Assembly (NCBI GenBank): GCA_003105185.1 | Contig: PQAJ01000138.1 | Coordinates: 1 to 53,948 of the forward strand | DNA from: Holophagae bacterium | GTDB taxonomy: Bacteria; Acidobacteriota; Thermoanaerobaculia; Thermoanaerobaculales; Sulfomarinibacteraceae | Length of the DNA: 53,948 nt | Direction of reading: 5' to 3' | Shown here: piece after piece, positions 2,320 to 41,416 of the stretch | How positions within the stretch are numbered: position 1 is the first letter of the stretch | How the letters are laid out: each line of letters starts with the position of its first letter | Made by a program: the position numbers and the translations under genes | Notes under the pieces: model-generated | What the model saw: only the letters and a program-made list of their open reading frames with translations | Told to the model about the DNA's origin: nothing | The model's database searches: none

Positions 2320-4764
2320 TTAGGTTCTGAGCGCCGTCATTCGATTGACCGCGAACAGGGCGCCGAGCACCACCGGCGCCCAGGCGCCGACCAGGGGCGG
2401 GAGGACCTCGGCCTCGCCGAGCTTCGAAAACACGATGACCAGGATCGAGTAGGCGATACCGAGGCCGAGCGCGAGCGCGACTCCTTGCATCGTGGTCACC
2501 CGGCGGCCGCCGCGGTTGAGGGCGAAGGGCATCGCCAGCCACACCATGACAATCGCCGACAGCGGGTAGGACACCTTCTGGTGGAGCCGGACCACGAGGC
2601 GAGCTGGCTGGTAGCCGGACTCCACGAGCTCGCGGATGTACTGCCGCAGCTCACCGAACGACATTTCGGAGGGGCTCGAGTACTCCTGTCCGAAGTAGTC
2701 TGGGCCTTCCGGCACCTGCAGCTTGAGCGGCCGGGTGATCCTGCGGAACTCGTCGGTGCCGTCCGGAAAGAACTGGCGGAACCAGCCGCCGTCGGCGATC
2801 CAGGCGTTGCCGTCCCAACGGGCGCGGTGCGCATACTGATGGAAGCGAAGGCGCATGTCCTCGTCGACGCGATAGATCGTCAGGCGGTAGAGGGTCTGCT
2901 CCTCACCGTCGTAGCGGAGGAAGTTGTAGAACGTGGTGTCGTCGCGCGACAACAGCCACTGCCGGTCAGTGACCCGGTAGGAGCGGGCGCCGGTGGCCTT
3001 GCCCTGGATGACGTCGAGCAGCTGCTCCCTGGTGCGGTTCGCGCCAGGGACCACGTGCTCGGCGAGCAGCCACATCACCACCCCGCCGGCAACCGCCACC
3101 AGCAGCGCCGGGACCATCAGCCGGTAGAGTGAGATGCCGGCCCCCTTGAGCGCAGTCAGCTCCTGCTGGCGCTCGAGCGCGGTCAGCAGGATCAACACCG
3201 CGATCAACATTCCGAACGGGAGCACGTCGATGACCACCTGCGGCATCAGGTTCCAGTAGTAGGCGAGGATGACCATGACCGGCGCCTGGTTCTTGGCCAT
3301 GTCGCCGGCGTGCTCGGTGAGGTCGACCACGATGTAGAGGGCGATCGTGCTCAGCAGCACCAGCAGCAGGGGAGCGATGAGCCGCCGGATGAGGTAGCGA
3401 TCGAGGAGCACCGGGAAGCGGGGCTCGACGTGCTGCCGAGCCACCTCGATCGCATCCGGCTCCGGTGGCCGCTGTGCCCCGGGCGGGAGGGAGGCCGCCC
3501 GCCACCGCCTCTGCCACCGCCGCCACCGTCGCCGCAGCCGGCGCAGGACGCTCTCGCGTGGCGCGCGCTCGCCCAGCCAGCGCCCCATCCGCGCCATCAG
3601 TACGAACGACAGCACGGCCAGGGCGAGGTTGGGCAGCCACATGCCGAGCCACACCGGGACCCGCCCCTCGAGGGCCAGCATCTCGCCGTTGTTGCCGACA
3701 ATCCAGTAGACGAGGACCACTGCCACCGAGATCACGAAGCCGCGGCCGCGGCCGCCTGACCGCGAGCCGATGCCGAGGGGCAGGGCGAGCAGGGCGAAGA
3801 CGACGCACGCCGCCGGCACCGCGAACCGGCGGTGGAGCTCGACGGCGGCCTGGCGCACCTGTGTCTCGCGCTCGCTCGGGTCGGCGCCTTCCTCGGCGAA
3901 TGCCTGCTCGCCGCCGCGGACCAGCCCGACCAGCTCGTGCGTTTCCAGCTCCCGCACGGCCCGGTCGTAGCGCACCGATCCCAAACCCTGCACCTGCGGC
4001 CGGAACTTGAGCTCCCGGTTGTTGTTGACGCGATAGGTCTCGGGGGATGCGCGCGGGAACTGGTGGGTGACCGCGTCCTCGAGCTCGATCCACGGCTGGC
4101 GGCGCACCGCCGCAGCGGCTGCGGTGCTGGTCAGGTCCTCTCGTACTCCGGAATCAGGAGCCATCGACACGACCCGGCCCCGGCGGGCGAGGGTCAACCG
4201 CTCCTCGCCGGGACTGGTGTTGTCGAAGACCAGCACCTGCTCCCAGTCGCCGTTGGCCTGGTCGACCTGGCGCACGAACAGCAGGATGTTCGGGAACTCC
4301 TCGTAGAAGACCCCGGGCTGGATCCTGCCCAGGTTGCGGGCCGCGGAGAACAGCCGGACGCGCAGGTCTTTGAGCGACCGATTGGCGCGCGGGATCTCGA
4401 CCGTCGACAAGAAGCCGGTCAGAATCGCCAGCGCCACGCCGACGGTCACGATCGGCCGCACCAGGCGCCGCGCCGAGATGCCGGCGGCCTGCAGAGCCAC
4501 GATCTCGCGGTCCGCGCTCAGCCGCCCGACCGCCAGCAGCACCCCGAACAGATAGCCCATCGGGATGGTCAGCACCACGACGTGTGGCAGCGTCACCAGC
4601 AGGACCGCCACCGCATCGCGCACGGGCAGTCCGCGCACGAAGATCTGCTCGATCAGCCCGAAGAGGCCCCGCATCATCAGCAGGAAGGTGTAGGTGACGA
4701 AACCCAGCGCCGCCGGCGACAGGACCTCGCGCACCATCATGCGGTCCAGCTTCACGCCCGCCAT
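2320..4764 (-). CDS. fused LptF-LptG LPS export permease (two YjgP/YjgQ modules in one ORF)
   Basis: The first module begins KLDRMMVREVLSPAALGFVTYTFLLMM. The second begins LLDRYLIRRLIAPLLLVLLSTIALYIV, after an Arg/Trp-rich linker RRLRRRWRRWQRRWR. There is no stop between them. Start set at ATG 4764; GTG 4755, 9 nt after GGGAGG, is equally possible. The 63 codons upstream to 4953 lack LptF similarity. Confidence 0.8.
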   Translation of the reverse strand: MAGVKLDRMMVREVLSPAALGFVTYTFLLMMRGLFGLIEQIFVRGLPVRDAVAVLLVTLPHVVVLTIPMGYLFGVLLAVGRLSADREIVALQAAGISARRLVRPIVTVGVALAILTGFLSTVEIPRANRSLKDLRVRLFSAARNLGRIQPGVFYEEFPNILLFVRQVDQANGDWEQVLVFDNTSPGEERLTLARRGRVVSMAPDSGVREDLTSTAAAAAVRRQPWIELEDAVTHQFPRASPETYRVNNNRELKFRPQVQGLGSVRYDRAVRELETHELVGLVRGGEQAFAEEGADPSERETQVRQAAVELHRRFAVPAACVVFALLALPLGIGSRSGGRGRGFVISVAVVLVYWIVGNNGEMLALEGRVPVWLGMWLPNLALAVLSFVLMARMGRWLGERAPRESVLRRLRRRWRRWQRRWRAASLPPGAQRPPEPDAIEVARQHVEPRFPVLLDRYLIRRLIAPLLLVLLSTIALYIVVDLTEHAGDMAKNQAPVMVILAYYWNLMPQVVIDVLPFGMLIAVLILLTALERQQELTALKGAGISLYRLMVPALLVAVAGGVVMWLLAEHVVPGANRTREQLLDVIQGKATGARSYRVTDRQWLLSRDDTTFYNFLRYDGEEQTLYRLTIYRVDEDMRLRFHQYAHRARWDGNAWIADGGWFRQFFPDGTDEFRRITRPLKLQVPEGPDYFGQEYSSPSEMSFGELRQYIRELVESGYQPARLVVRLHQKVSYPLSAIVMVWLAMPFALNRGGRRVTTMQGVALALGLGIAYSILVIVFSKLGEAEVLPPLVGAWAPVVLGALFAVNRMTALRT

Positions 4765-5025
4765 CCTCCCACGGGCCGGCAACCTCCGCGGCGAAGGATG
4801 ATCCGGCGACGACGACGCTCGGCGACGTCCGCAGCAGTGTAGCGCGACTTCGGCCGACTGCGAGTCGAACCAGCACTTCCACCGCCGAGGGGAGCGAGCC
4901 CACAGGATTTCCACAGGGCCTGGGTTTTCCGCAGGCTCTGAGTACATATGCAATGTCCGATAAGATATATTATGTAAACCTACGATTGTGGAACGTGACC
5001 CCGCGAGCCGTATTGAGGACCCGGC

Positions 5026-14104: not shown

Positions 14105-14565
14105 AGTCCCTCCGCGTCCGCCGCCCGGCGCAGCGCGGCGATCACCTCGTCCCGGTCGGGCGCCTCGAGCAGCGCTTGCCGCAGGTCCTCCCGCTTCAGG
14201 ACGCGGGCGATCTGGGACAAGATCTTGAGGTGCGCGGTCGGCTGCTCCGGGGGCGAGAACACTACGAACAGGAAGCGCACCGGGCTGTCGTCCGGAGCAC
14301 CGAAGTCAACCGGGCCGGCAAAGCGCACGAGCGACAGGTCGACGGTCGAGACGCCGTTGACCTTGCCGTGCGGGATGGCGAATCCCATACCCACCGCCGT
14401 CGAGCCGAGACGCTCGCGCGCAAGCAGCGCCGCGACCAACTGGGAGACATCGCTCTGCAGCCTCGGGGCGGCGGCAGTCGCAGCGGCGTGAAGCGCGTCC
14501 ATCACGTCTCGTGCGGCGACATCCAGCACGATGCGGTCGCGGTCCGCGAAGTCGCGGATGTTCAT
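14101..14565 (-). CDS. ptsN: PTS EIIA-Ntr (nitrogen regulatory IIA)
   Basis: GSTAVGMGFAIPHGK active-site His region. The gene sits between hpf and hprK. Confidence 0.85.
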   Translation of the reverse strand: MNIRDFADRDRIVLDVAARDVMDALHAAATAAAPRLQSDVSQLVAALLARERLGSTAVGMGFAIPHGKVNGVSTVDLSLVRFAGPVDFGAPDDSPVRFLFVVFSPPEQPTAHLKILSQIARVLKREDLRQALLEAPDRDEVIAALRRAADAEGL

Positions 14566-15104
14566 CAGGACTCGGGCGTGATCAGGCCGAGGTCATGGCC
14601 GGTCCGCCGGTAGAGAACGTTGATGGAATCGCTCGAGGAGTTTCGGAACACCAGGAAGTCGCTGCGCGACTTCTCGAGCTGCATTACCGCCTCCTCGACG
14701 CTCATCGGCTTCACGGTGATCGTGCTGCGCTCGACGATCCGCGCCTCGCCAGCCGGGGCGGGCTCGGGCTCGGCCTCGGGACCCTCGACCGGCACCTCGC
14801 CGCGGCCGGTGCGGCTCTTGTGGTGCTTGAGCTTGGTCTTGGCGCGCCGCGCCTGGATCTCGAGCTTGTCGACGGCGTCTTGAATGGCAGTGGTGAGGTC
14901 CTTGTTCTGGCTGGTCGACTTGATGTCGAAGTCCTTCCCCCGAACCAGCAGGTCGGCTACGAACAGATGGCGCTCCTGCTCGAGCTCGAGACGAACGTCG
15001 AGGATGTCGTTGAAGTACTTCTTGATCTTGGCCAGTTTCTTCTCGGCCACCTGGCGAGCGTCGTCACTCAGATCCACCTTGCGCGCGACGTACTCGATCT
15101 TCAT
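14565..15104 (-). CDS. hpf: ribosome hibernation promoting factor, long form
   Basis: The N-terminus MKIEYVARKVDLSDDARQVAEKKLAKIKKYF and C-terminal dimerisation domain (PMSVEEAVMQLE...FLVFRN) fit HPF. The position directly downstream of rpoN is canonical. Confidence 0.9.
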   Translation of the reverse strand: MKIEYVARKVDLSDDARQVAEKKLAKIKKYFNDILDVRLELEQERHLFVADLLVRGKDFDIKSTSQNKDLTTAIQDAVDKLEIQARRAKTKLKHHKSRTGRGEVPVEGPEAEPEPAPAGEARIVERSTITVKPMSVEEAVMQLEKSRSDFLVFRNSSSDSINVLYRRTGHDLGLITPES

Positions 15105-15119
15105 CGGTGTCCTCCCATA

Positions 15120-16691
<1,572 letters not shown>

Positions 16692-16744: not shown

Positions 16745-17479
16745 TCACAGACGGAATTCTTCTCCCAGGTAGATCCGCCGCACGTCCTCGTTGTCGGACA
16801 GCCCAACTGGATCCCCCGTAGCAAAAATCTTGCCGTCCTTGATTATATAGGCGCGGTCCGTGATCTTCAACGTCTCACGAACGTTGTGATCCGTGATTAA
16901 CACGCCTATTCCCAATGACTTGAGATGGCTAATGATGCGCTGTAGATCGATCACAGCGAGCGGGTCAATGCCGGCGAACGGCTCGTCGAGCAGGATGAAC
17001 GTGGGGTCGATGGCGAGCGACCGGGCGACCTCGAGTCGGCGTCTCTCGCCGCCGGACAGCGTCTCGGCACGCTGGTGGCGCAGGGCGCTCAGCCCGAAGT
17101 CTTCGAGAAGGCCGTCGATCCGGCGCTGCGCCTCGCCGGCATCGGTGCCGAGCGCCTCGAGCACCATCCAGATGTTGTCTTGGACGTCGAGTCGTCGAAA
17201 CGCGCTCGGTTCCTGCGCGAGGTAGGCCACGCCGGCGCGAGCCCGGCGGAACATCGGCCAGGAGGTGATGTCGTCCTCGCCGAGCATCACCCGGCCGCCG
17301 TCAGGCTCGACCAGGCCGACCATCATGTAGAAGCAGGTGGTCTTACCGGCGCCGTTCGGGCCGAGCAGACCGACGATCTCGCCGGGCGCTATGCTCAGCG
17401 AGACGCCATCCACCACCTTTCGCCCGCGGTAGGACTTGCGCAGACTGTCGGCGACAAGATCGAGAGCTTGCGGACTCAG
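16745..17479 (-). CDS. lptB: LPS export ABC transporter ATPase LptB (probable CTG start)
   Basis: Walker [13 protein letters not shown], signature LSGGERRR and C-terminal YLGEEFRL. Conserved N-terminal residues [15 protein letters not shown] lie upstream of the ORF-track GTG (17416). The only SD-preceded codon there is CTG 17479..17477. Confidence 0.85.
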
Positions 17480-19422
17480 CGTCCCTCCTCCGGGTAGTAG
17501 ATGGTCTCGGTGCCGCCAGCGACGGTGACACTACCATCCGCCTGATTCCAGGTCAACGAAGAGCTCGACACTGCCGAACCGGTGGCATCCTCGAGGCGCA
17601 CCGGCGATCCGGTAGCGACCACTGTCCCCTGCTCCACGTCACGGATCGCGTGCTGCGCGGTCATGGTTCTTCCGGTGGCCAGCTCGCGCAGCTCGACGTC
17701 GCCGGTCGCCTCGACCTTCCGGATCTCGTCCTGCTCGTCGAACTCCGCGGCGAGCTCGGTCGCGGACAGCACGTTGTCCGGGTCGCTGTAACGGACGTCG
17801 CCCCTGAACACGGCGCGGCCCCCGAACCGCTCGTAGGTCAACGACCTGGCTGCGATCACGACCTCGCCAGCGGCCGCCTCGGAGCGGTCGACCTGACTCG
17901 AAGGAAAGGTCGCACGCACGTGTCCGGACGCTTCCACGACGCCCGCCTCCTCGCGGTAGGAGACATCGTCGGCGGTCAGCAGCCGCTTTCCCTGCCAGAG
18001 CCGCGCGCCGTCCCGCAGCCGGTAGCTCGCGCCGGACCCGGTCACCTCGAGCAGCTCCGCCGCAAAGTGAAGCGGCCCGGCGCCGTCACCGGTCTCGCTG
18101 CCGAGGATTGCGACCTCGCTGAGGGAACCCTGAACCTTGCCCCGCGCCTCCAGTCGGCCGTCGCGGTCGCTGATCTGAATCTGATCGCTGGTGATGTGCC
18201 CGCGCGGCGATGTCACCGACGCCCGCTCGAGGGCGGTCGGGTCGCCGTGGAGCATCGTGATCCCAGCGATCGATGAGAAGCGCGCCCGATAACCCGTCGC
18301 CTCGATGCCCTCGCCGCGGATCACCACCTGCTGCTCGAGCTGCATGTCAGTGGCGAGGCCGTCCTTGAACCACACCCGCGCGGCCGCCGCCTCTGCCGAC
18401 CTGGGATCTGCGTCGACCGGGATCTCGTCCAGGCAGACGCCGTCGTCAGCGCGCAGGTTGAGCGGGCCGTCCGGCGCGAGCACGCCGCGCAGGATGCGCG
18501 TCCGCAGCCTGCGCTCGAAGAACGCGTCACTGCCGCGCAAGACCACCGCCACCCAATCGCCGGTGGTCGAGGCGTCGATCTGCCAATTACCGTGGCCGTC
18601 GCGCTCCGCGACCACGGTCTCCGCCGCGAGCTCGCTGCCATCGCGGCCGCCGCCGCCGGGACCGCGAGCCTTGACCCCTCCCCGGAAGGTCACCCGCTGC
18701 GGCGGTCCTTCCGGCTCGGCCAGCTCCACGGTCGCGGAGGGGGCCATGATCCAGGCCTCCCCCTGGACGACCTTGCACCCGTGTGGGAACTCGATCGTGC
18801 CGCGTCCCCGCTGGTAGACGATCGTGTCAGCCTGCAGCGTGGTCCCACCCGAGGTCAGCAGCGCGCCGTCGGCGAGCACGAGCTGATCGTCATTCATCAG
18901 GTACATCGCCTGGCCGGCCTCGGCGACGGTGCCGCCGCTCATGAACACGACCTCGGAATCGGTGACGAACCGGCGGCTGCTCGCCTCGAAGTGGCCGCTC
19001 TGGGTGGTGACCGTGCCCCCGCTCGGGAAGCTGACGTGGATCGGGCCGCGCAGCTCTGCGTCGCGGGTCTCAACGTTGAAGCTCGCCGCCGCCGCCGTCA
19101 CCACCGGGCCGGCAACGCCGGCGTCGTAGAGCTGGAGCTGAACGCCCTCGATCTCATGCCAGCCCGACGACCGCCCCAGCGTCCGCAGCGAGCGCAGGGC
19201 GAAGATCGCCTTGCCGGCGATGCTCTCGACGTACTCGAAGCCGGTGTAGATGCCGACCGCGGGGTCGTCGACCTCGCCCTCGGCCACCGGCGGGGTTCGA
19301 TCCCCAGCCGGGCGCGCCATGCTGCGCGACCGCTGCACGCCGATGACGACCAGGGCCGCGATCGAGACCGCGATCAGTATCGCCGTGACGTAGCGGATCC
19401 ACTTGCGCGCGATCGCGCTCAT
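17476..19422 (-). CDS. membrane-anchored LptC/LptA (OstA-like) multi-repeat protein
   Basis: N-terminal TM helix ([22 protein letters not shown]), then repeated OstA-like beta segments (for example [27 protein letters not shown]...[11 protein letters not shown]). It occupies the lptC-lptA position immediately upstream of lptB-rpoN. Start trimmed to ATG 19422. Confidence 0.6.
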
Positions 19423-19503
19423 GCGGGCCTCAGGAGCAGCGGAATGCGGCACATGTCCCCAACGAGGGTACCGCACTCCCGGGCGGTGGAGCGCTGGCGC
19501 GGG

Positions 19504-37151: not shown

Positions 37152-38267
37152 CTACCCGCCGTCGCCGGTGGCCCCGAAGCCGCTGGCCGGGGTCGGCGGC
37201 ACGGGCCGGCGCGCCGCCTCGTGCCGCGCGATCACCTCCACCGGTACCTCGATCAGCGGCCGCGCCGGATCCGAGGTGGCGATGCGCACGGTGGTGCGCA
37301 GCGTGCCCTGCCCGACCGTCACACCCTCGGCGAGGGTGATCCGGATCGAGTGGATCTGCTGGCTGCCGGAGCTCTCGAGCTTCGCCGCGACCAGCGCCGG
37401 ATCGGCAACCTCGATCCCGGTAACCTCGAAGGCGGATCGTCCGGCATGAGCCAACCGCACCAGCAGGCTCGCGCCGCCAGGACCCCCGTCTGCCGGCCAC
37501 AGCCGGACCGAGCTCGGGCGCGCCTCGATCGTCGCGCGGATCCTGACGATCAGGGGCACCTCCACCTTCGGCGCACGCGGATCGTTGGTGGCGACGGTGA
37601 TCAGCCCGTCGTGACTGCCAGCCACCGCCGACTCGATGGTGCCAACGAGCCACTGGTCGCCGCGCTGGGGCGTCAGCTTGCCGATTGCCGGCTCGCTGCC
37701 CTGCGCGGGCGCGAGCTCGACCCGGAGCCCGCGCTCCAGGGTCGTCCCGACCACCCGGGCCTCGAGTGGCTGGCCGTCGGCGCGCCGCAGCAGAACCCGC
37801 TCGGTGAGCGACGAACCCTCGACGGCGTTGAAGTACATGCGAAACGCGGGCATCGCCACGATCGGCGTCACCGCGTTGAACGACACGGTGAGACGAAGGC
37901 TCTCGACGCCCGGCGCATCGGTCTCCACCGTGATGCTCTTCGACAAGCGCCCACTGTGCCCGCTGTTGGTCTTGACCTTCGATGTGAGCTGTCCCGACCC
38001 ACCTGCCGGGATGACCGAGTCATACTCGGTGACGGTGCATCCTCAGGAAGGTTTTGCGCGGATGATGTGAACATCCGCGTCGCCAGCGTTGTGGAAGCGG
38101 AACACCGCCACCGCTTCGCTGCCCGCCGTCACGTCTCCGAGGTCGATCATCTCCTGTTCGACTCGGAACAGCGGGGTCGGCGCTGCTTCATCGGCGGCAA
38201 CCGCCACCGCGGCGATGACCACGAGCGCGCCGAGGACCGCGGCGGCGGTCGTCGTGAACTGCTTCAT
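37152..38267 (-). CDS. secreted DUF1573-type repeat protein with a single in-frame TGA (38043..38045): candidate selenoprotein or recent pseudogene
   Basis: ORFs 38043..38267 and 37152..37946 share one frame, which stays open between them apart from that one TGA. Signal peptide MKQFTTTAAAVLGALVVIAAVAVA. The DUF1573 pattern FRFHNAGDADVHIIRAKPS-[TGA]-GCTVTEYDSVIPAGGSGQL...SKSITVETDA puts the TGA where the family has the first Cys of SCGCT. Confidence 0.6.
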
Positions 38268-38378: not shown

Positions 38379-39149
38379 TCAGGACCGGCCGGCGGGCTGG
38401 ACCTCACCGCCGATGCCGACCACGGCCACCCGCAGCGGAACGGTCCGCGCCGCCTGCGCCAGTGCGGCGTTGGCGAGCTGCACCAGGCCCCGGCAGCAGG
38501 GCACCTCCATGACCATGACCTCGATCCCGCAAATCCGGCCGTGATCGATCATCGCCGCGAGCTTGGCCAGGTAGGCCTCCTGCTGGCTGTCGAGCTTGGG
38601 GCAAGCGATGGCCAGGGCCCGGCCATCGAGGTGGGCCTGGTGGAAGCCGCCGACCGCGTAGGCCACGCAGTCGGCGGCGAGCAGCAGCTCTGCGCCCTCG
38701 AGGAAAGGTGCGGTCGGCGGCAGCAGGTGGAGCTGGATCGGCCACTGCCGCAGCCGCGATGTGAGGTCACCCGCAGCCACTGGCCCGCCGGCTGGCGGGC
38801 GCAGGGCGACCACGCGGGATCCTGGGCAGGACGCCGCCGAGTGTTCGCCCACCACTGGCAGGCCGGCGCCGGCGGTGGGACGCAGGTTGGATCGCAGCCC
38901 GGCCAGATGGTGGCCGACGGCCGCGCTGTCGAAGTCCTCGGCCTCGCGCCGCACCACGGTGATCGCGCCCTTCGGGCAGTGTCCGAGGCAGGCGCCGAGG
39001 CCGTCGCAGTAGACCTCGCTGACCAGCCTGGCTCTGCCATCGACGATCTGGATTGCCCCTTCGGCACAGCTCGGGACGCAGTCGCCGCACCCGTCGCACA
39101 GCTTCTCGTCAATCTCCACAACCTCGCGCACGGCCATCGGATCACGCAC
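38379..39149 (-). CDS. 4Fe-4S dicluster domain protein with Cys-rich C-terminal domain
   Basis: CDGCGDCVPSC and CDGLGACLGHCP ferredoxin-type motifs. C-terminal region with ACPKLD and EVPCCRGL. Confidence 0.75.
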   Translation of the reverse strand: MRDPMAVREVVEIDEKLCDGCGDCVPSCAEGAIQIVDGRARLVSEVYCDGLGACLGHCPKGAITVVRREAEDFDSAAVGHHLAGLRSNLRPTAGAGLPVVGEHSAASCPGSRVVALRPPAGGPVAAGDLTSRLRQWPIQLHLLPPTAPFLEGAELLLAADCVAYAVGGFHQAHLDGRALAIACPKLDSQQEAYLAKLAAMIDHGRICGIEVMVMEVPCCRGLVQLANAALAQAARTVPLRVAVVGIGGEVQPAGRS

Positions 39150-39492
39150 CCTGGCCGCGCAGCATGGTCAGGATCATCTTCGAATCCGCGGCGGCGCGCA
39201 GTGCGTGTGGCACCCCGGCCGGCATCAAGACGATCTCCCCGGCGTTGACCGTCACCGGCTTGCCGCCGATGGCGAGCTCGAGCTGCCCGGACGCGACGTG
39301 CACCAGCGCGTCAAACGGCGCGGTGTGCTCCGCGAGCTCCTGCCCGGCGGCGAACGCGAACACGGTCACGCTGCCGCCCGGACTGCGGGCGAGCACCCTG
39401 CTCACGATCGCCGCCGGCGCGACCTTCACCAGTTGGTCTACCACGGCCACCTCGGCCGGAGCCATTACCGTGCTTCCCGATGCGTCCTTCAT
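39142..39492 (-). CDS. cupin domain protein
   Basis: ORF trimmed to ATG 39492. GQELAEHTAPFDALVHVASGQLELAIGGKPVTVNAGEIVLMPAGVPHAL is the two-motif cupin pattern. Confidence 0.7.
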   Translation of the reverse strand: MKDASGSTVMAPAEVAVVDQLVKVAPAAIVSRVLARSPGGSVTVFAFAAGQELAEHTAPFDALVHVASGQLELAIGGKPVTVNAGEIVLMPAGVPHALRAAADSKMILTMLRGQGA

Positions 39493-39547
39493 GGTCACCC
39501 CCGATGTGCAGTGTGCCGCGCCCGCCAGCCCTCGTCCTTGATCCAGG

Positions 39548-40822
39548 TCAAGCCGGCGGCCGGAGGCGAGGGAACACCGGCTGGTTGGCGATGACCGCGA
39601 CCATGTCACCGGCACGCGTCCGCCGCCAGCCGTGCACGATCGACGCCGGATCGCTCACCGGGTGGAAGCCGAGCCGCCGCGCCAGCGCGTCGTCGAGCCG
39701 CGACACCAGGTGCACCCGGTACCGTGCCGTCAGGCTCACCAGCCGCAGCGTCGTGTGACCGTACTGGACCCACCGCTCGGCCAGGCGCTGCATGATCGCC
39801 GACGGCCGAGGGTCGTCGAGGAACGGCTGCATGTCCGGTGACCCGGCGCCCGATGACAGGTCGGCCGCGAACAGCACCTCCCCTCCCTCATCGAGGAACC
39901 GGCACGCCGCGTCAAGGCCCTTGTGCGCCTGGATCAAGGTGGCGTCCGCCGGCGCCCCACCGGCCGACGCCACGGCCAACGGGAAGCGCCCAGCGGCGAT
40001 CTCGTACCAGTGACGCGCCCTTTCCACGGCTGCCGCAAAGGCAGTCCGCCACGGACCGGCGGCGGCGAAGGCCGGGCGCCCGTCACGGCCCGGGACCAGG
40101 CAGAGAGCACAGTCGGGCGGCCGGCAGTCCGCGGCCCGCGCGATCTCCTCGGCGACCGGGTTGCCGTCCAACACCCCAGGTTGGCACCCGGGTTCGCGCT
40201 CGAGCTCGCCGCCATGCCGGCGCAGCACGCGGGCGTGGTTGGCCTGAATCTCGCGGTAGCCCGCCACCCCGGGGAACACCATCTTCGGACCGCCGCCGAA
40301 GCCGGCGAAGTAGTGGTGCCGAACCCCGCCGACGGTGACCAGCAGCGACGCCTCGGCGGCCAGGCGGTGCAGGCGAACCGCGCTGCCATCGGTAAGGCTG
40401 CCGACCCGGACCAACGCAGCCTCGTCGCGCGCGTCGTGCTGCATGATCCGGATGCCGCTCGGGACCGGTCCGACGAGCGATGCCAGGGAACCATCAGAAA
40501 GCGGCGGGTGGGTGCCGCACGCCACCAACACGCTGACCCGGCGGTCCGGCACCCCGGCACGAGCCAGTTGCTCGAGCACGACTGGGAGCACCGCCGCGAG
40601 CTCGATTTTGCGGGTCGCGTCCGGGACCACCACGGTGGCGTCAGTTCGGCCGTGCGCCAGCTCTGCCAGAGGCCCGCCGTCGAGCGGTCGATCCAGCGCC
40701 TGTCGGATCAGCCGGGGCAAGTCCGCTGCGCCGGCGGGCGCAGCGGGTTCGAGCGGCCGGACCTTGAGCCCGCGCAGGTCGACCGCGAGGGTGTCGGTGG
40801 CGAAGGGAAGCTTGACGATCAC
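39548..40822 (-). CDS. LarA-like (lactate racemase family, DUF2088) protein
   Basis: ORF 39548..41398 trimmed to GTG 40822 (VIVKLPF...). VVPDATR, LVACGTHPP and HHYFAGFGGGPK resemble the nickel-pincer racemase/epimerase family. 424 aa. Confidence 0.7.
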   Translation of the reverse strand: MIVKLPFATDTLAVDLRGLKVRPLEPAAPAGAADLPRLIRQALDRPLDGGPLAELAHGRTDATVVVPDATRKIELAAVLPVVLEQLARAGVPDRRVSVLVACGTHPPLSDGSLASLVGPVPSGIRIMQHDARDEAALVRVGSLTDGSAVRLHRLAAEASLLVTVGGVRHHYFAGFGGGPKMVFPGVAGYREIQANHARVLRRHGGELEREPGCQPGVLDGNPVAEEIARAADCRPPDCALCLVPGRDGRPAFAAAGPWRTAFAAAVERARHWYEIAAGRFPLAVASAGGAPADATLIQAHKGLDAACRFLDEGGEVLFAADLSSGAGSPDMQPFLDDPRPSAIMQRLAERWVQYGHTTLRLVSLTARYRVHLVSRLDDALARRLGFHPVSDPASIVHGWRRTRAGDMVAVIANQPVFPRLRPPA

Positions 40823-40861
40823 CGACTCAAGATACCATCGTGCAGGCGGGAGATCACCGCG

Positions 40862-41416
40862 ATGCACGAGCCGCTTCCCCAGGCCGACCGCACGCTCCTG
40901 CTGGAGCTCGCGCGGGACACCCTCAAGGCGACCTTTGCCGGCCGTCCGCTGCCGCTTCCCGACCCGCTCGACGATGCGCTCACGCAGCGTCGCGGCGCCT
41001 TCGTCACCCTGACCATCAAGGGCGCGCTGCGCGGCTGCATCGGCCACGTCGAGGCGGTCGAGCCGCTGTGGCGGAGCGTGCGCGACAACACCCTCGCCGC
41101 GGCCTTCCGGGACCCGCGATTCCCGCCGCTCGAGGAGGGAGAGCTCGAGCAGGTGGTCATCGAGATCTCCGTGCTGACGCCGATGCAAAGGGTCACCAGC
41201 CCGGACGGGGTGGTCGTCGGGACGCACGGCCTGCTCATCGAGCGGGGCCAACGCCGCGGGCTCCTGCTCCCACAGGTCGCCAGCGAGCGCGGCTGGGACC
41301 GCTTCACATTCCTCGATCAGACCTGCCGCAAGGCTGGTCTCGACCCGGGTTGCTGGCATTCCGACGAGACCAGGATCTTCGTGTTCTGCGCCGATCACTT
41401 CCGCGAACCGGGCTGA
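40862..41416 (+). CDS. AMMECR1 domain protein
   Basis: ORF 39923..41416 trimmed to ATG 40862. GAFVTLTIKGALRGCIGHVE and GLLLPQVA are AMMECR1 hallmarks. 184 aa. Confidence 0.9.
   Translation: MHEPLPQADRTLLLELARDTLKATFAGRPLPLPDPLDDALTQRRGAFVTLTIKGALRGCIGHVEAVEPLWRSVRDNTLAAAFRDPRFPPLEEGELEQVVIEISVLTPMQRVTSPDGVVVGTHGLLIERGQRRGLLLPQVASERGWDRFTFLDQTCRKAGLDPGCWHSDETRIFVFCADHFREPG

Follow-up and report, generated by a model that had tools for sequence, protein, structure and literature searches.

On the reverse strand of the window, a 53,948-nucleotide contig from a Holophagae bacterium analysed over its whole length, the open reading frames 38043..38267 and 37152..37946 form one frame whose sole break is a TGA at 38043-38045 (codon 75). 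The frame and its translation agree with a preliminary description of this DNA, which had joined the two parts through the lone TGA into a 371-residue product. That product comprises a predicted signal peptide, three Ig-like beta-sandwich domains in tandem, and a disordered tail rich in Pro, Ala, and Gly.

37152..38267, reverse strand: complete coding sequence of 371 codons with a TAG stop and a single in-frame TGA that is read through
38196..38267, reverse strand: predicted Sec-type signal peptide, aa 1-24, cleavage after AVA (translation inspected by eye)
37893..38165, reverse strand: DUF1573/OS_HP2-type PapD-like Ig domain, aa 35-125, straddling the TGA; Pfam PF07610
38043..38045, reverse strand: proposed selenocysteine (Sec) codon UGA, codon 75, in the motif KPS-U-G-C-T; TGA in 96/96 clade members
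38037..38039, reverse strand: Cys77 codon TGC; Cys invariant in 86/86 Sec-clade and 70/70 Cys-clade sequences (clades defined below)

By inspection of the translation, the N-terminus begins MKQ, continues into a hydrophobic core, and reaches AVA|AD, with neither a lipobox nor a twin-arginine motif; it looks like the Sec-type signal peptide that had been proposed, and a hydrophobic N-terminus is found in every Sec-clade member. When the 371-residue product is searched against Pfam with U read as Cys, the DUF1573 model PF07610 matches aa 35-125, directly across the TGA, with an E-value of 1.5e-15 and a score of 57.4 bits, compared to a gathering threshold of 26.1. The predicted peptide across codon 75, translated with Sec at the UGA, is AKPS-U-GCTVTEYDSVIPAGGSGQLTSK, in which Cys77 is probably the partner of Sec75 in a U-x-C motif.

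The window gene is a divergent acidobacterial branch of a known selenoprotein family, not a new family. Reviews of prokaryotic selenoproteins already include a DUF1573 family with a 'UGC' motif (PMC9312934, PMC13188914), so the novelty implied by the preliminary description does not hold. The primary source is apparently Zhang & Gladyshev 2007, where the family is named OS_HP2 (PMC1976440); that OS_HP2 and the DUF1573 'UGC' family are the same is suggested by the order of a table in the review and by a match to NCBIfam model NF041425, 'OS_HP2 family (seleno)protein'. The window protein matches this model with an E-value of 1.7e-21 and 76.4 bits over positions 3-94 of 98, and has the U/C-G-C motif (KPS-U-G-C-T) at the Sec position of the model. 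Its score falls short of the 100-bit curated cutoff, which marks it as a homolog outside the curated boundary. The window protein and six other Sec-clade members score 63.1-80.7 bits, all below 100, and four Cys-clade homologs score 89, 107.2, 111, and 114.5, three of the four passing. OS_HP2 and the window family share the PF07610 domain, Sec at the first position of C-G-C, and the existence of Cys-form homologs. They differ in that the original OS_HP2 hosts are deltaproteobacterial worm symbionts, whereas the window clade belongs to Acidobacteriota (Thermoanaerobaculia, Sulfomarinibacteraceae, and MAGs labelled Holophagae), and in that the window protein has two Ig-like domains beyond the OS_HP2 domain. 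Recognised DUF1573/OS_HP2 selenoproteins include CAB1076174.1 and MDJ0815992.1; a domain-profile search for such proteins returned only Cys-form single-domain DUF1573 proteins, and Figure 5 of the 2007 paper does not include an OS_HP2 SECIS (PMC1976440).

The collection designated the Sec clade consists of the window and 95 additional loci, with 86 sequences distinct over 135 nt, and reaches down to about 36% protein identity. Codon 75 is TGA in 96 of 96 sequences, and the frame is maintained across it in all of them. Because the scan patterns left codon 75 out, a Cys revertant within the clade would have surfaced. In the sister clade, designated the Cys clade, homologs are single uninterrupted proteins, and the aligned codon is TGC or TGT in all 70 sites of matching coverage; the second Cys of C-G-C is invariant in both clades. 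The TGA therefore replaces the first Cys of the DUF1573 C-G-C, as had been proposed, and its alignment with the Cys of non-selenoprotein homologs is as expected of bacterial selenoprotein genes. The Sec/Cys partition, 96/96 versus 70/70, is very clean for one found in nature.

Over 237 pairs, the part upstream of the TGA has a median omega of 0.13 and the downstream part one of 0.22, so that, as judged from these sequence comparisons, purifying selection acts on both flanks, and the relaxed selection that a pseudogene would show downstream of the TGA is not seen. A single TGC-to-TGA change would be sufficient to create such a codon, and the hairpin energy discussed below is by itself not significant, so the TGA might be read as a sequencing error, a recent nonsense mutation, or the mark of a pseudogene. 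The comparative data already refute this reading, and we give it a negligible chance: the same TGA occurs in 96 independent assemblies or metagenomes spanning 36-94% protein identity, the downstream part is under the constraint just described, and the RNA element appears only together with the TGA. Global reassignment of UGA to Gly or Trp in the lineage has nothing in its favor beyond the in-frame TGA itself, and is refuted by stop codon usage, making it the least credible reading of all. TGA is an ordinary stop here, ending 29 of 41 other GC3-supported ORFs in the window, in agreement with the earlier claim that recoding is not global, and the stop positions of TGA-terminated window genes agree with full-length Pfam domains. 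A crude GC3-based scan, which recovered only 11 known sites, gave no credible candidate for another gene with an in-frame TGA in 1.66 Mb of related loci; its output beyond the known sites consisted of adjacent same-frame genes and antisense frames.

In public gene calls, the Sec-clade gene is split in two in 38 of 38 clusters, including a PGAP-annotated MAG, and appears as two 'hypothetical proteins'. The upstream ORF is 73-76 aa long, while the downstream starts differ (238-313 aa). The uniformity of this split would suit a reading in which there are two products, a secreted 74-aa peptide terminated by the TGA and a protein of ~260-295 aa made by downstream reinitiation. We consider this very improbable, since the DUF1573 beta-sandwich spans the TGA, so that neither half would have the complete domain, the downstream protein would be without a signal peptide, and no start is conserved, the next in-frame start in the window being a TTG 33 codons downstream of the TGA. 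Moreover, the Cys-clade homologs are continuous, and the Sec-clade sequences keep the frame throughout. The splitting is probably explained by the NF041425 scores of 63-81 bits, compared to the cutoff of 100, by which the curated model misses the clade; these scores, together with the alignment, could be used to extend NF041425.

Downstream of the TGA, codons +5..+17 have a synonymous entropy of 0.16, compared to 0.67-0.76 in the rest of the gene, and the lowest six 10-codon windows in the gene all fall within this stretch. Median dS is 0.000 over the RNA element versus 0.76 elsewhere. In the Sec clade, Ser+9 is TCG in 86/86 sequences, Ser+16 is TCG in 81/81, and Gly+14 is GGT in 84/86, whereas GGT encodes the same Gly in 5/70 Cys-clade sequences. 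Codons at these element positions vary freely in the Cys clade, where the aligned +9 position is Lys or Arg, without a hairpin. The constrained stretch folds into two adjoining hairpins, H1 and H2, whose nucleotides are counted from the U of UGA.

38012..38032, reverse strand: hairpin H1, nt 14-34; 7-bp invariant core plus up to 2 outer pairs, 3-nt loop [A/U][C/U]G
37992..38011, reverse strand: hairpin H2, nt 35-54; 7-8 bp stem, from the RNAalifold consensus
38001..38003, reverse strand: GGU, the Gly+14 codon at the H2 apex, nt 43-45; candidate SelB recognition nucleotides

H1 is exactly 21 nt long. Its core, ACCGAGU/ACUCGGU (38030-38024 / 38020-38014), closed in the window by an AUG loop, begins 12 nt after the UGA; this 7-bp stem lies where the preliminary description placed it, and forms standard pairs in 74 of 74 distinct sequences, with a single change of G-C to G-U. 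The outer pair 15/33 covaries (G-C 35, C-G 9, U-G 5, A-U 1, unpaired 24). An additional outer stem that had been suggested, GGAUG/CAUCC, was rejected: it lacks conservation (51/86 sequences have GGC as codon +1 and 25/86 have GGA), and its CAUCC arm overlaps the better supported H2. Of the SECIS-like hairpin as first described, the conserved H1 stands, but it covers half of an element that extends to 37992 and includes H2, which had been missed. The apical loop of H2 is mostly AGGUGG, otherwise GGUC or a register-shifted GGU; at pairs 42/47 and 39/50 both partners change among sequences, and 20 of 20 H2 sequence variants retain the hairpin fold.

For H1 and H2 combined, 91.7% of positions assigned to pairs are paired, versus 26-52% with slid partners, and both-sided changes are seen at 3 pairs. 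With RNAalifold, the Sec clade reaches -14.7 and the Cys clade -1.4. A covariance model of the combined element, searched against 1.33 Mb, scores Sec sites at 83-91 bits, Cys sites at 14-36, and all else at no more than about 17. The stem-loop directly 3' of the UGA thus occurs only with TGA in the comparison of the two clades, and both the orthologs and the covariance model bear out the co-occurrence that had been proposed as a check. Folding energy alone is not unusual (the window hairpin has z = -0.92 relative to shuffles, in local sequence of 69% GC), and the significance of the hairpin therefore comes only from comparative data. Curated Rfam covariance models give no gathering-level match in the window, and only chance-level matches at E up to 10 over 37900-38120.

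Taken together, H1 and H2 look like a SECIS, though not a textbook one. The bSECIS consensus of bSECISearch calls for a loop of 3-9 nt, a stem of 4-16 bp, a G at loop position 1 or 2, and a UGA distance of 16-37 nt (PMC13188914, Fig. 2 legend); the same review points out that some bSECIS elements fall outside this model. Both H1 and H2 agree with the stem and loop-length ranges. The spacing of H1, 19 nt, fits, but its loop is without a G in positions 1-2; H2 has the required loop G, but lies 38-39 nt from the UGA, where the limit is 37. Neither hairpin by itself conforms to every published bSECIS criterion.

The window element can be compared with the SECIS of E. coli fdhF, the bacterial reference SECIS. 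Both elements lie in the coding region directly 3' of the UGA, with a similar 5' linker of 10-11 nt ahead of the first helix, and H2, like the fdhF hairpin, has a short G+C-rich upper stem topped by GGU. The fdhF apical tetraloop GGUC, for which sequence and fold were checked, is identical in several H2 variants; most H2 loops, unlike it, are AGGUGG, and H2 has no evident bulged U matching U17 of fdhF. G23 and U24 of the fdhF SECIS contribute to SelB binding. The GGU occupies nt 43-45 in the window element versus nt 22-24 in fdhF, and this 21-nt offset equals the perfectly conserved H1, for which fdhF has no counterpart, so that with H1 removed the GGU would fall at nt 22-24, as in fdhF.

In the mechanism that we propose, the UGA at 38043-38045 would be decoded as Sec through SelB and Sec-tRNA(Sec), and the signal that recruits them would be a SECIS inside the coding region, formed jointly by the neighbouring H1 and H2 (nt 14-54 after the UGA). 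SelB would more likely bind H2, because the almost invariant GGU at its apex resembles the fdhF loop, and H1 may serve as a folded spacer at the mRNA entrance. A tentative extension, which we regard as possible but would not favor, is that H1 and H2 represent a distinct class of bacterial SECIS, in which a fixed 21-nt spacer hairpin precedes an fdhF-like GGU hairpin and the spacing becomes canonical only when the spacer is folded. If this were true, a second RNA fold would be needed for Sec insertion; with an inserted hairpin of exactly 21 nt, the geometry is directly testable. Alternatively, H1 and H2 may both contact SelB or the ribosome.

We put the probability at roughly 85% that 37152..38267 on the reverse strand encodes a genuine selenoprotein, exported, with three Ig-like domains, the first of them of DUF1573/OS_HP2 type with the motif Sec75-Gly-Cys77. 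The Sec trait is recorded in the phylum Acidobacteria. Nothing is overturned by this assignment, as family and mechanism are both of known kinds. Genes for selA, selB, selD, and tRNA-Sec were not found in the window or in the 1.66 Mb of related loci; because the loci cover gene neighbourhoods only, this provides no data on their presence in the genome. ARAGORN, applied to the same sequences, found 10 tRNAs in total and no tRNA-Sec. Tblastn with approximate E. coli SelA, SelB, and SelD queries gave weak GTPase matches only, in Cys-clade loci, and Pfam searches of about 42 window genes identified housekeeping genes only. Our literature search found no publication linking Thermoanaerobaculia or Sulfomarinibacter to selenocysteine.

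A UGA that is recoded, but not as Sec, would also account for a conserved codon. A selC* tRNA, an allo-tRNA acting as opal suppressor, or near-cognate readthrough might insert Cys, Ser, or Trp, with the RNA element stimulating readthrough or recruiting SelB that carries Cys-tRNA. Acidobacteria have 8/4 and 9/3 'allo-tRNAs' that are proposed nonsense suppressors, and a selC* tRNA(Cys) may serve as opal suppressor in delta-proteobacteria, although selC* is not reported from Acidobacteria (PMC5389517). The failure to find Sec genes in the gene neighbourhoods sampled would fit this scheme as well, but the 10 tRNAs in those loci include none that is suppressor-like. Were Cys inserted at the UGA, that codon would offer nothing beyond what TGC offers, and yet the clade has TGA without exception. 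DUF1573/OS_HP2 is, in addition, a recognised Sec/Cys family, and the GGU apical loop agrees with the SelB-type signal of fdhF. We judge recoding to an amino acid other than Sec improbable, and prefer selenocysteine.

We know of no activity for any DUF1573 protein. In an AlphaFold2 (AF2) model of the domain of a Cys homolog (P0041), with pLDDT 95-98, C-G-C lies in a turn between two strands, and the post-TGA part of the window protein (296 aa) is modeled as all-beta with pLDDT 87. The closest PDB fold match for the DUF1573 domain is 2QSV; Foldseek gave generic PapD/ASH/Ig matches only, and no PDB sequence homolog was found. Neither fold searches nor gene neighbourhoods gave a catalytic clue. 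One Cys form, from Planctomycetota, carries a fused AhpC/TSA-Redoxin (ResA-like) domain. A periplasmic U-x-C pair in a beta-turn could form a redox-active selenylsulfide or bind a soft metal or metalloid, and because of this motif chemistry and the one domain fusion we suggest, weakly, that the protein takes part in redox reactions or metal binding in the periplasm. Selenoprotein families of the thiol:disulfide interchange and thiol-disulfide isomerase-like kinds have been tabulated (PMC1976440 Table 1), and exported selenoproteins of the thiol:disulfide oxidoreductase type have Sec near Cys in a redox motif, as here. Those proteins, however, have a thioredoxin fold and a U-x-x-C motif, whereas the window protein has a PapD-like Ig beta-sandwich and U-x-C, which would make it an exported selenoprotein of non-thioredoxin fold.

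The genomic context at 38379..41398 on the reverse strand consists of conserved upstream neighbours, identified by Pfam and NCBIfam.

39548-41398, reverse strand: LarA-like NPN-dependent racemase homolog
39142-39615, reverse strand: cupin
38379-39149, reverse strand: 4Fe-4S/AF_0155 protein

No promoter or terminator consensus was found around 37152..38267. Among the Sec-clade members is Ca. Sulfomarinibacter, described from MAGs of marine sediment (Ca. Sulfomarinibacter kjeldsenii, JACXWA01); others are GCA_035431145.1, GCA_041560205.1, and CAVQXZ01 (MAG MFD00032.bin.2.196), whose locus is 93% identical. Cys-clade genomes include Thermoanaerobaculum aquaticum. The gene order rhomboid-LarN-cupin-Fer4-[gene]-cmk-rpsA occurs in 9 of 9 Sec-clade loci with enough flank and in 0 of 42 Cys-clade loci, where housekeeping genes, among them an mpl-like ligase and rph, flank the gene.

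On the minus strand, positions 38267 to 37152 form one reading frame of 371 sense codons closed by TAG, whose sole break is the TGA at 38045-38043 (codon 75; local text ...IIRAKPS-TGA-GCTVTEYDSVIPAGGSG). With codon 75 taken as Cys, the Pfam DUF1573 match runs across the TGA (residues 35-125, E=1.5e-15, 57.4 bits; gathering score 26.1), which bears out the preliminary description of a single frame interrupted once, inside DUF1573. A pseudogene is ruled out by a median omega (Nei-Gojobori, 237 pairs) of 0.13 over the 45 codons that precede the TGA and of 0.22 over codons +18 to +290 after it, the latter value contradicting the relaxed downstream selection that had been named as a contrary sign. 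A reassigned genetic code is ruled out as well: of 41 further ORFs with GC3 support in the window, the majority with a Pfam family match, 29 are closed by TGA, and the earlier view that TGA is not globally recoded was correct. The sole false-positive "in-frame TGA" signal of the window comes from rpoN and hpf (14565-15104, minus strand), which lie in one frame with the rpoN stop TGA (15120-15122) between them.

A protein search found 38 close homologs, each a gene call of 238-313 residues whose coverage of the query is limited to its C-terminal 57-77%. At all five distinct loci fetched, the gene call is immediately preceded by a separate in-frame ORF of 73-76 residues, the two being divided by one TGA at the same codon. 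Two collection scans added 160 loci, and the comparison of Cys and TGA at this position suggested earlier gave a clean split. The aligned codon is TGA in 96 of 96 sequences (the window and 95 loci; 86 distinct over 135 nt) of a group designated the Sec clade, with the context [ILV][RK]AKPS-U-GC-x-x-[AT]E[YF]DSVIPAG and identities to the window protein as low as about 36%. It is TGC or TGT at all 70 sites (69 loci) of the Cys clade, with the context V[RKQ]P[TSA]-C-GC-TVAE[YF]DK.I.PG. Because the U codon was left out of the peptide patterns used to find the Sec clade, a Cys revertant within it would have been detected; none occurs among the 96 sequences. Sec-clade hosts are metagenome-assembled genomes (MAGs) labelled Holophagae, Thermoanaerobaculia, Ca. 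Sulfomarinibacter or Sulfomarinibacteraceae, and one locus, L007, which lies on a contig of 1.37 Mb, shares 93% identity with the window. The Cys clade occurs in MAGs of Thermoanaerobaculia and of other Acidobacteriota, Thermoanaerobaculum aquaticum among them, and in one Planctomycetota MAG. One Acidobacteria MAG (RHKY01000027.1) carries tandem Cys-form paralogs (L084:8118 and L084:10100).

The gene order rhomboid-LarA_N-cupin-Fer4/AF_0155-[gene]-cmk-rpsA surrounds the Sec form at nine of nine loci with enough flank, and the Cys form at none of 42. Cys forms must therefore be viewed as homologs over most of the protein length, not as positional orthologs. Neighbours of the gene are uninformative on function in both clades.

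In the codon tables, synonymous positions are almost invariant over codons +5 to +17, and only in the Sec clade. Glu+6 is GAG and Ser+9 is TCG in 86 of 86 sequences, the latter despite six Ser codons; Ser+16 is TCG in 81 of 81, Gly+17 is GGA in 72 of 86, and Gly+14 is GGT in 84 of 86, as against 5 of 70 for the same Gly in the Cys clade. Normalised synonymous entropy is 0.16 at +5 to +17 and 0.67-0.76 in all other gene segments, the six lowest-entropy 10-codon windows of the whole gene all fall at +2 to +19, and median dS is 0.000 in the frozen stretch versus 0.76 downstream. Two adjacent hairpins lie here (nt 1 is the U of UGA):

H1: nt 14-34, window 38032-38012, minus strand; invariant core is the 7-bp stem of the preliminary description, with a 3-nt loop
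H2: nt 35-54, window 38011-37992, minus strand; stem of 7-8 bp, cap AGGUGG, GGUC or GGU

Folding energy by itself is unremarkable (z = -0.92, in a 69% GC sequence), and the window contains no Rfam match and no tRNA. With RNAalifold, the Sec clade yields both hairpins (-14.7), whereas the Cys clade yields no structure (-1.4). Across 74 distinct sequences the two-hairpin structure is 91.7% paired, versus 26-52% with slid partners. Both sides change together at three pairs (G-C/C-G at the H1 outer pair, C-G/U-A closing the H2 loop, G-C/U-A in the H2 stem), and the fold is retained by 20 of 20 H2 variants and 22 of 22 H1 variants. The H1 3' arm is formed by Asp-Ser-Val codons, in place of which Cys-clade sequences encode Asp-Lys or Asp-Arg, so that the hairpin is present only with TGA. 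A covariance model scores Sec sites at 83-91 bits and homologous Cys sites at 14-36 bits; all other scores in 1.33 Mb stay at or below about 17 bits. The co-occurrence of hairpin and TGA, proposed earlier as a check, is thereby confirmed, and the stem ACCGAGU/ACUCGGU with its AUG loop lies exactly where it had been placed. Conservation does not extend to the proposed outer stem GGAUG/CAUCC: most sequences have GGC at codon +1, and the stem is in competition with H2.

The bacterial SECIS consensus calls for a loop of 3-9 nt, a stem of 4-16 bp, a G in loop positions 1-2, and a UGA-to-loop distance of 16-37 nt (PMC13188914). H1, read earlier as SECIS-like, agrees in spacing (19 nt) but fails the loop-G rule; H2 passes the loop-G rule, but its distance is 38-39 nt. 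Neither hairpin singly is a textbook bacterial SECIS. The E. coli fdhF element, 100% identical in 5,419 genomes, folds with its GGUC tetraloop at nt 22-25; its GGU thus starts at nt 22, whereas that of the window gene occupies nt 43-45. H1 is exactly 21 nt long, and its deletion in silico brings the GGU to nt 22. The H2 apex is sequence-invariant despite a rare-codon cost, and the H1 loop varies (ACG, UCG, AUG, UUG). From these sequence features we lean slightly toward an arrangement in which SelB would recognise H2 and H1, in folded form, would act as a spacer at the mRNA entrance; a reversal of the two roles seems rather unlikely.

We put the probability that the TGA is a selenocysteine codon, and the gene a selenoprotein gene, at roughly 85%. 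Sec users are known within the phylum (PMC1794560); Sec machinery is absent from the window and from the gene neighbourhoods of roughly 20 kb, a statement about these stretches alone. Since acidobacterial allo-tRNAs have been proposed as nonsense suppressors (PMC5389517), recoding of the UGA to something other than Sec keeps a small probability.

The preliminary description implied that DUF1573 was not a described selenoprotein family, which does not hold. In two reviews (PMC9312934, PMC13188914), the prokaryotic selenoprotein families include a DUF1573 domain-containing protein (PF07610, motif UGC), for which Zhang & Gladyshev 2007 is cited. Judged by table order, it appears to be the OS_HP2 of that study (PMC1976440), which had two sequences from deltaproteobacterial Olavius symbionts, Cys homologs then unknown, and a SECIS absent from Figure 5. 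The window protein matches NCBIfam NF041425, "OS_HP2 family (seleno)protein" (E=1.7e-21, 76.4 bits), below its cutoff of 100 bits; scores are 63-81 bits for another six proteins of the Sec clade and 89, 107, 111 and 115 bits for Cys-clade proteins. The family was therefore already known, and the Sec clade is a divergent branch missed by the curated model, which is probably why public gene calls are split (for example PGAP "hypothetical protein PLV66_11745"). Public calls P0001-P0038 and P0125 are all truncated, with false starts that differ among callers (238-313 residues); P0125 (61 residues) starts at a false Met within the domain. What is new is a member clade whose annotation is systematically wrong and whose two-hairpin SECIS is atypical; the selenoprotein family itself is not new.

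For P0041, a homolog from the Cys clade, the AF2 model (pLDDT 95-98 within the domain) is a PapD-like beta-sandwich with C-G-C in a turn between two strands; its closest PDB match is 2QSV (P. gingivalis, function unknown), followed by HYDIN and VesB Ig domains. The 296 residues after the TGA in the window protein are confidently predicted (pLDDT 87) to form a further two beta-sandwich domains plus a tail that is disordered, with only generic tandem-Ig structural matches. An apparent signal peptide makes a periplasmic location of the protein probable. A 529-residue Cys form in a Planctomycetota MAG (L021:10142 region, CALODL010000001.1) has a C-terminal AhpC/TSA-Redoxin (ResA-like) domain at residues 363-495, with SWNP at the usual CxxC position. 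This single fusion links the C-G-C protein to thiol-redox biology and, with U-x-C chemistry, makes up all the functional hints. Our best guess, at about even odds, would be a redox-active selenylsulfide or soft-metal site.

The LarA-like ORF (nickel-pincer racemase family; 39548-41398, minus strand; 616 residues) shows homology only from about residue 196 and overlaps the cupin gene by 68 nt, and its real start is probably further downstream; the ORF, the cupin gene and the Fer4/AF_0155 gene make up a compact, conserved cluster on the upstream side of the selenoprotein gene. L003 (ERZ25039459 contig_18137, 284,890 bp) has a Sec-form gene, 74% identical in amino acids to that of the window, outside the usual synteny, beside two ArsR-type HTH_5 regulators, an SBF-family transporter and a low-molecular-weight phosphatase/ArsC-like gene. 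The surroundings look like a metalloid-resistance neighbourhood, and the gene may be relocated or a second copy. In more divergent Sec-clade loci (L005, L006, L009, L011, L013-L015, L017), cmk lies 2.5-3.8 kb downstream of the gene, versus 1.0 kb; this extra gap is absent from the window, L007 and L008. A radical SAM gene (Radical_SAM_N2 + Radical_SAM, about 505-520 residues) adjoins the selenoprotein gene of L005 and L006 on the opposite strand. L013 (DATHSO010000150.1), from a MAG labelled Candidatus Methylomirabilota, has the Sec form in full Thermoanaerobaculia-type synteny and an rpsA 81% identical to that of the window; either the binning of this contig or the label of the MAG may be wrong. 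Elsewhere in the window, two minus-strand ORFs are unusually long, fused LPS-transport components: 2320-4953 (877 residues, two LptF/LptG matches), which looks like a fused LptFG permease, and 17476-19476 (666 residues), joining LptC-like and LptA/LptD_N-like regions.
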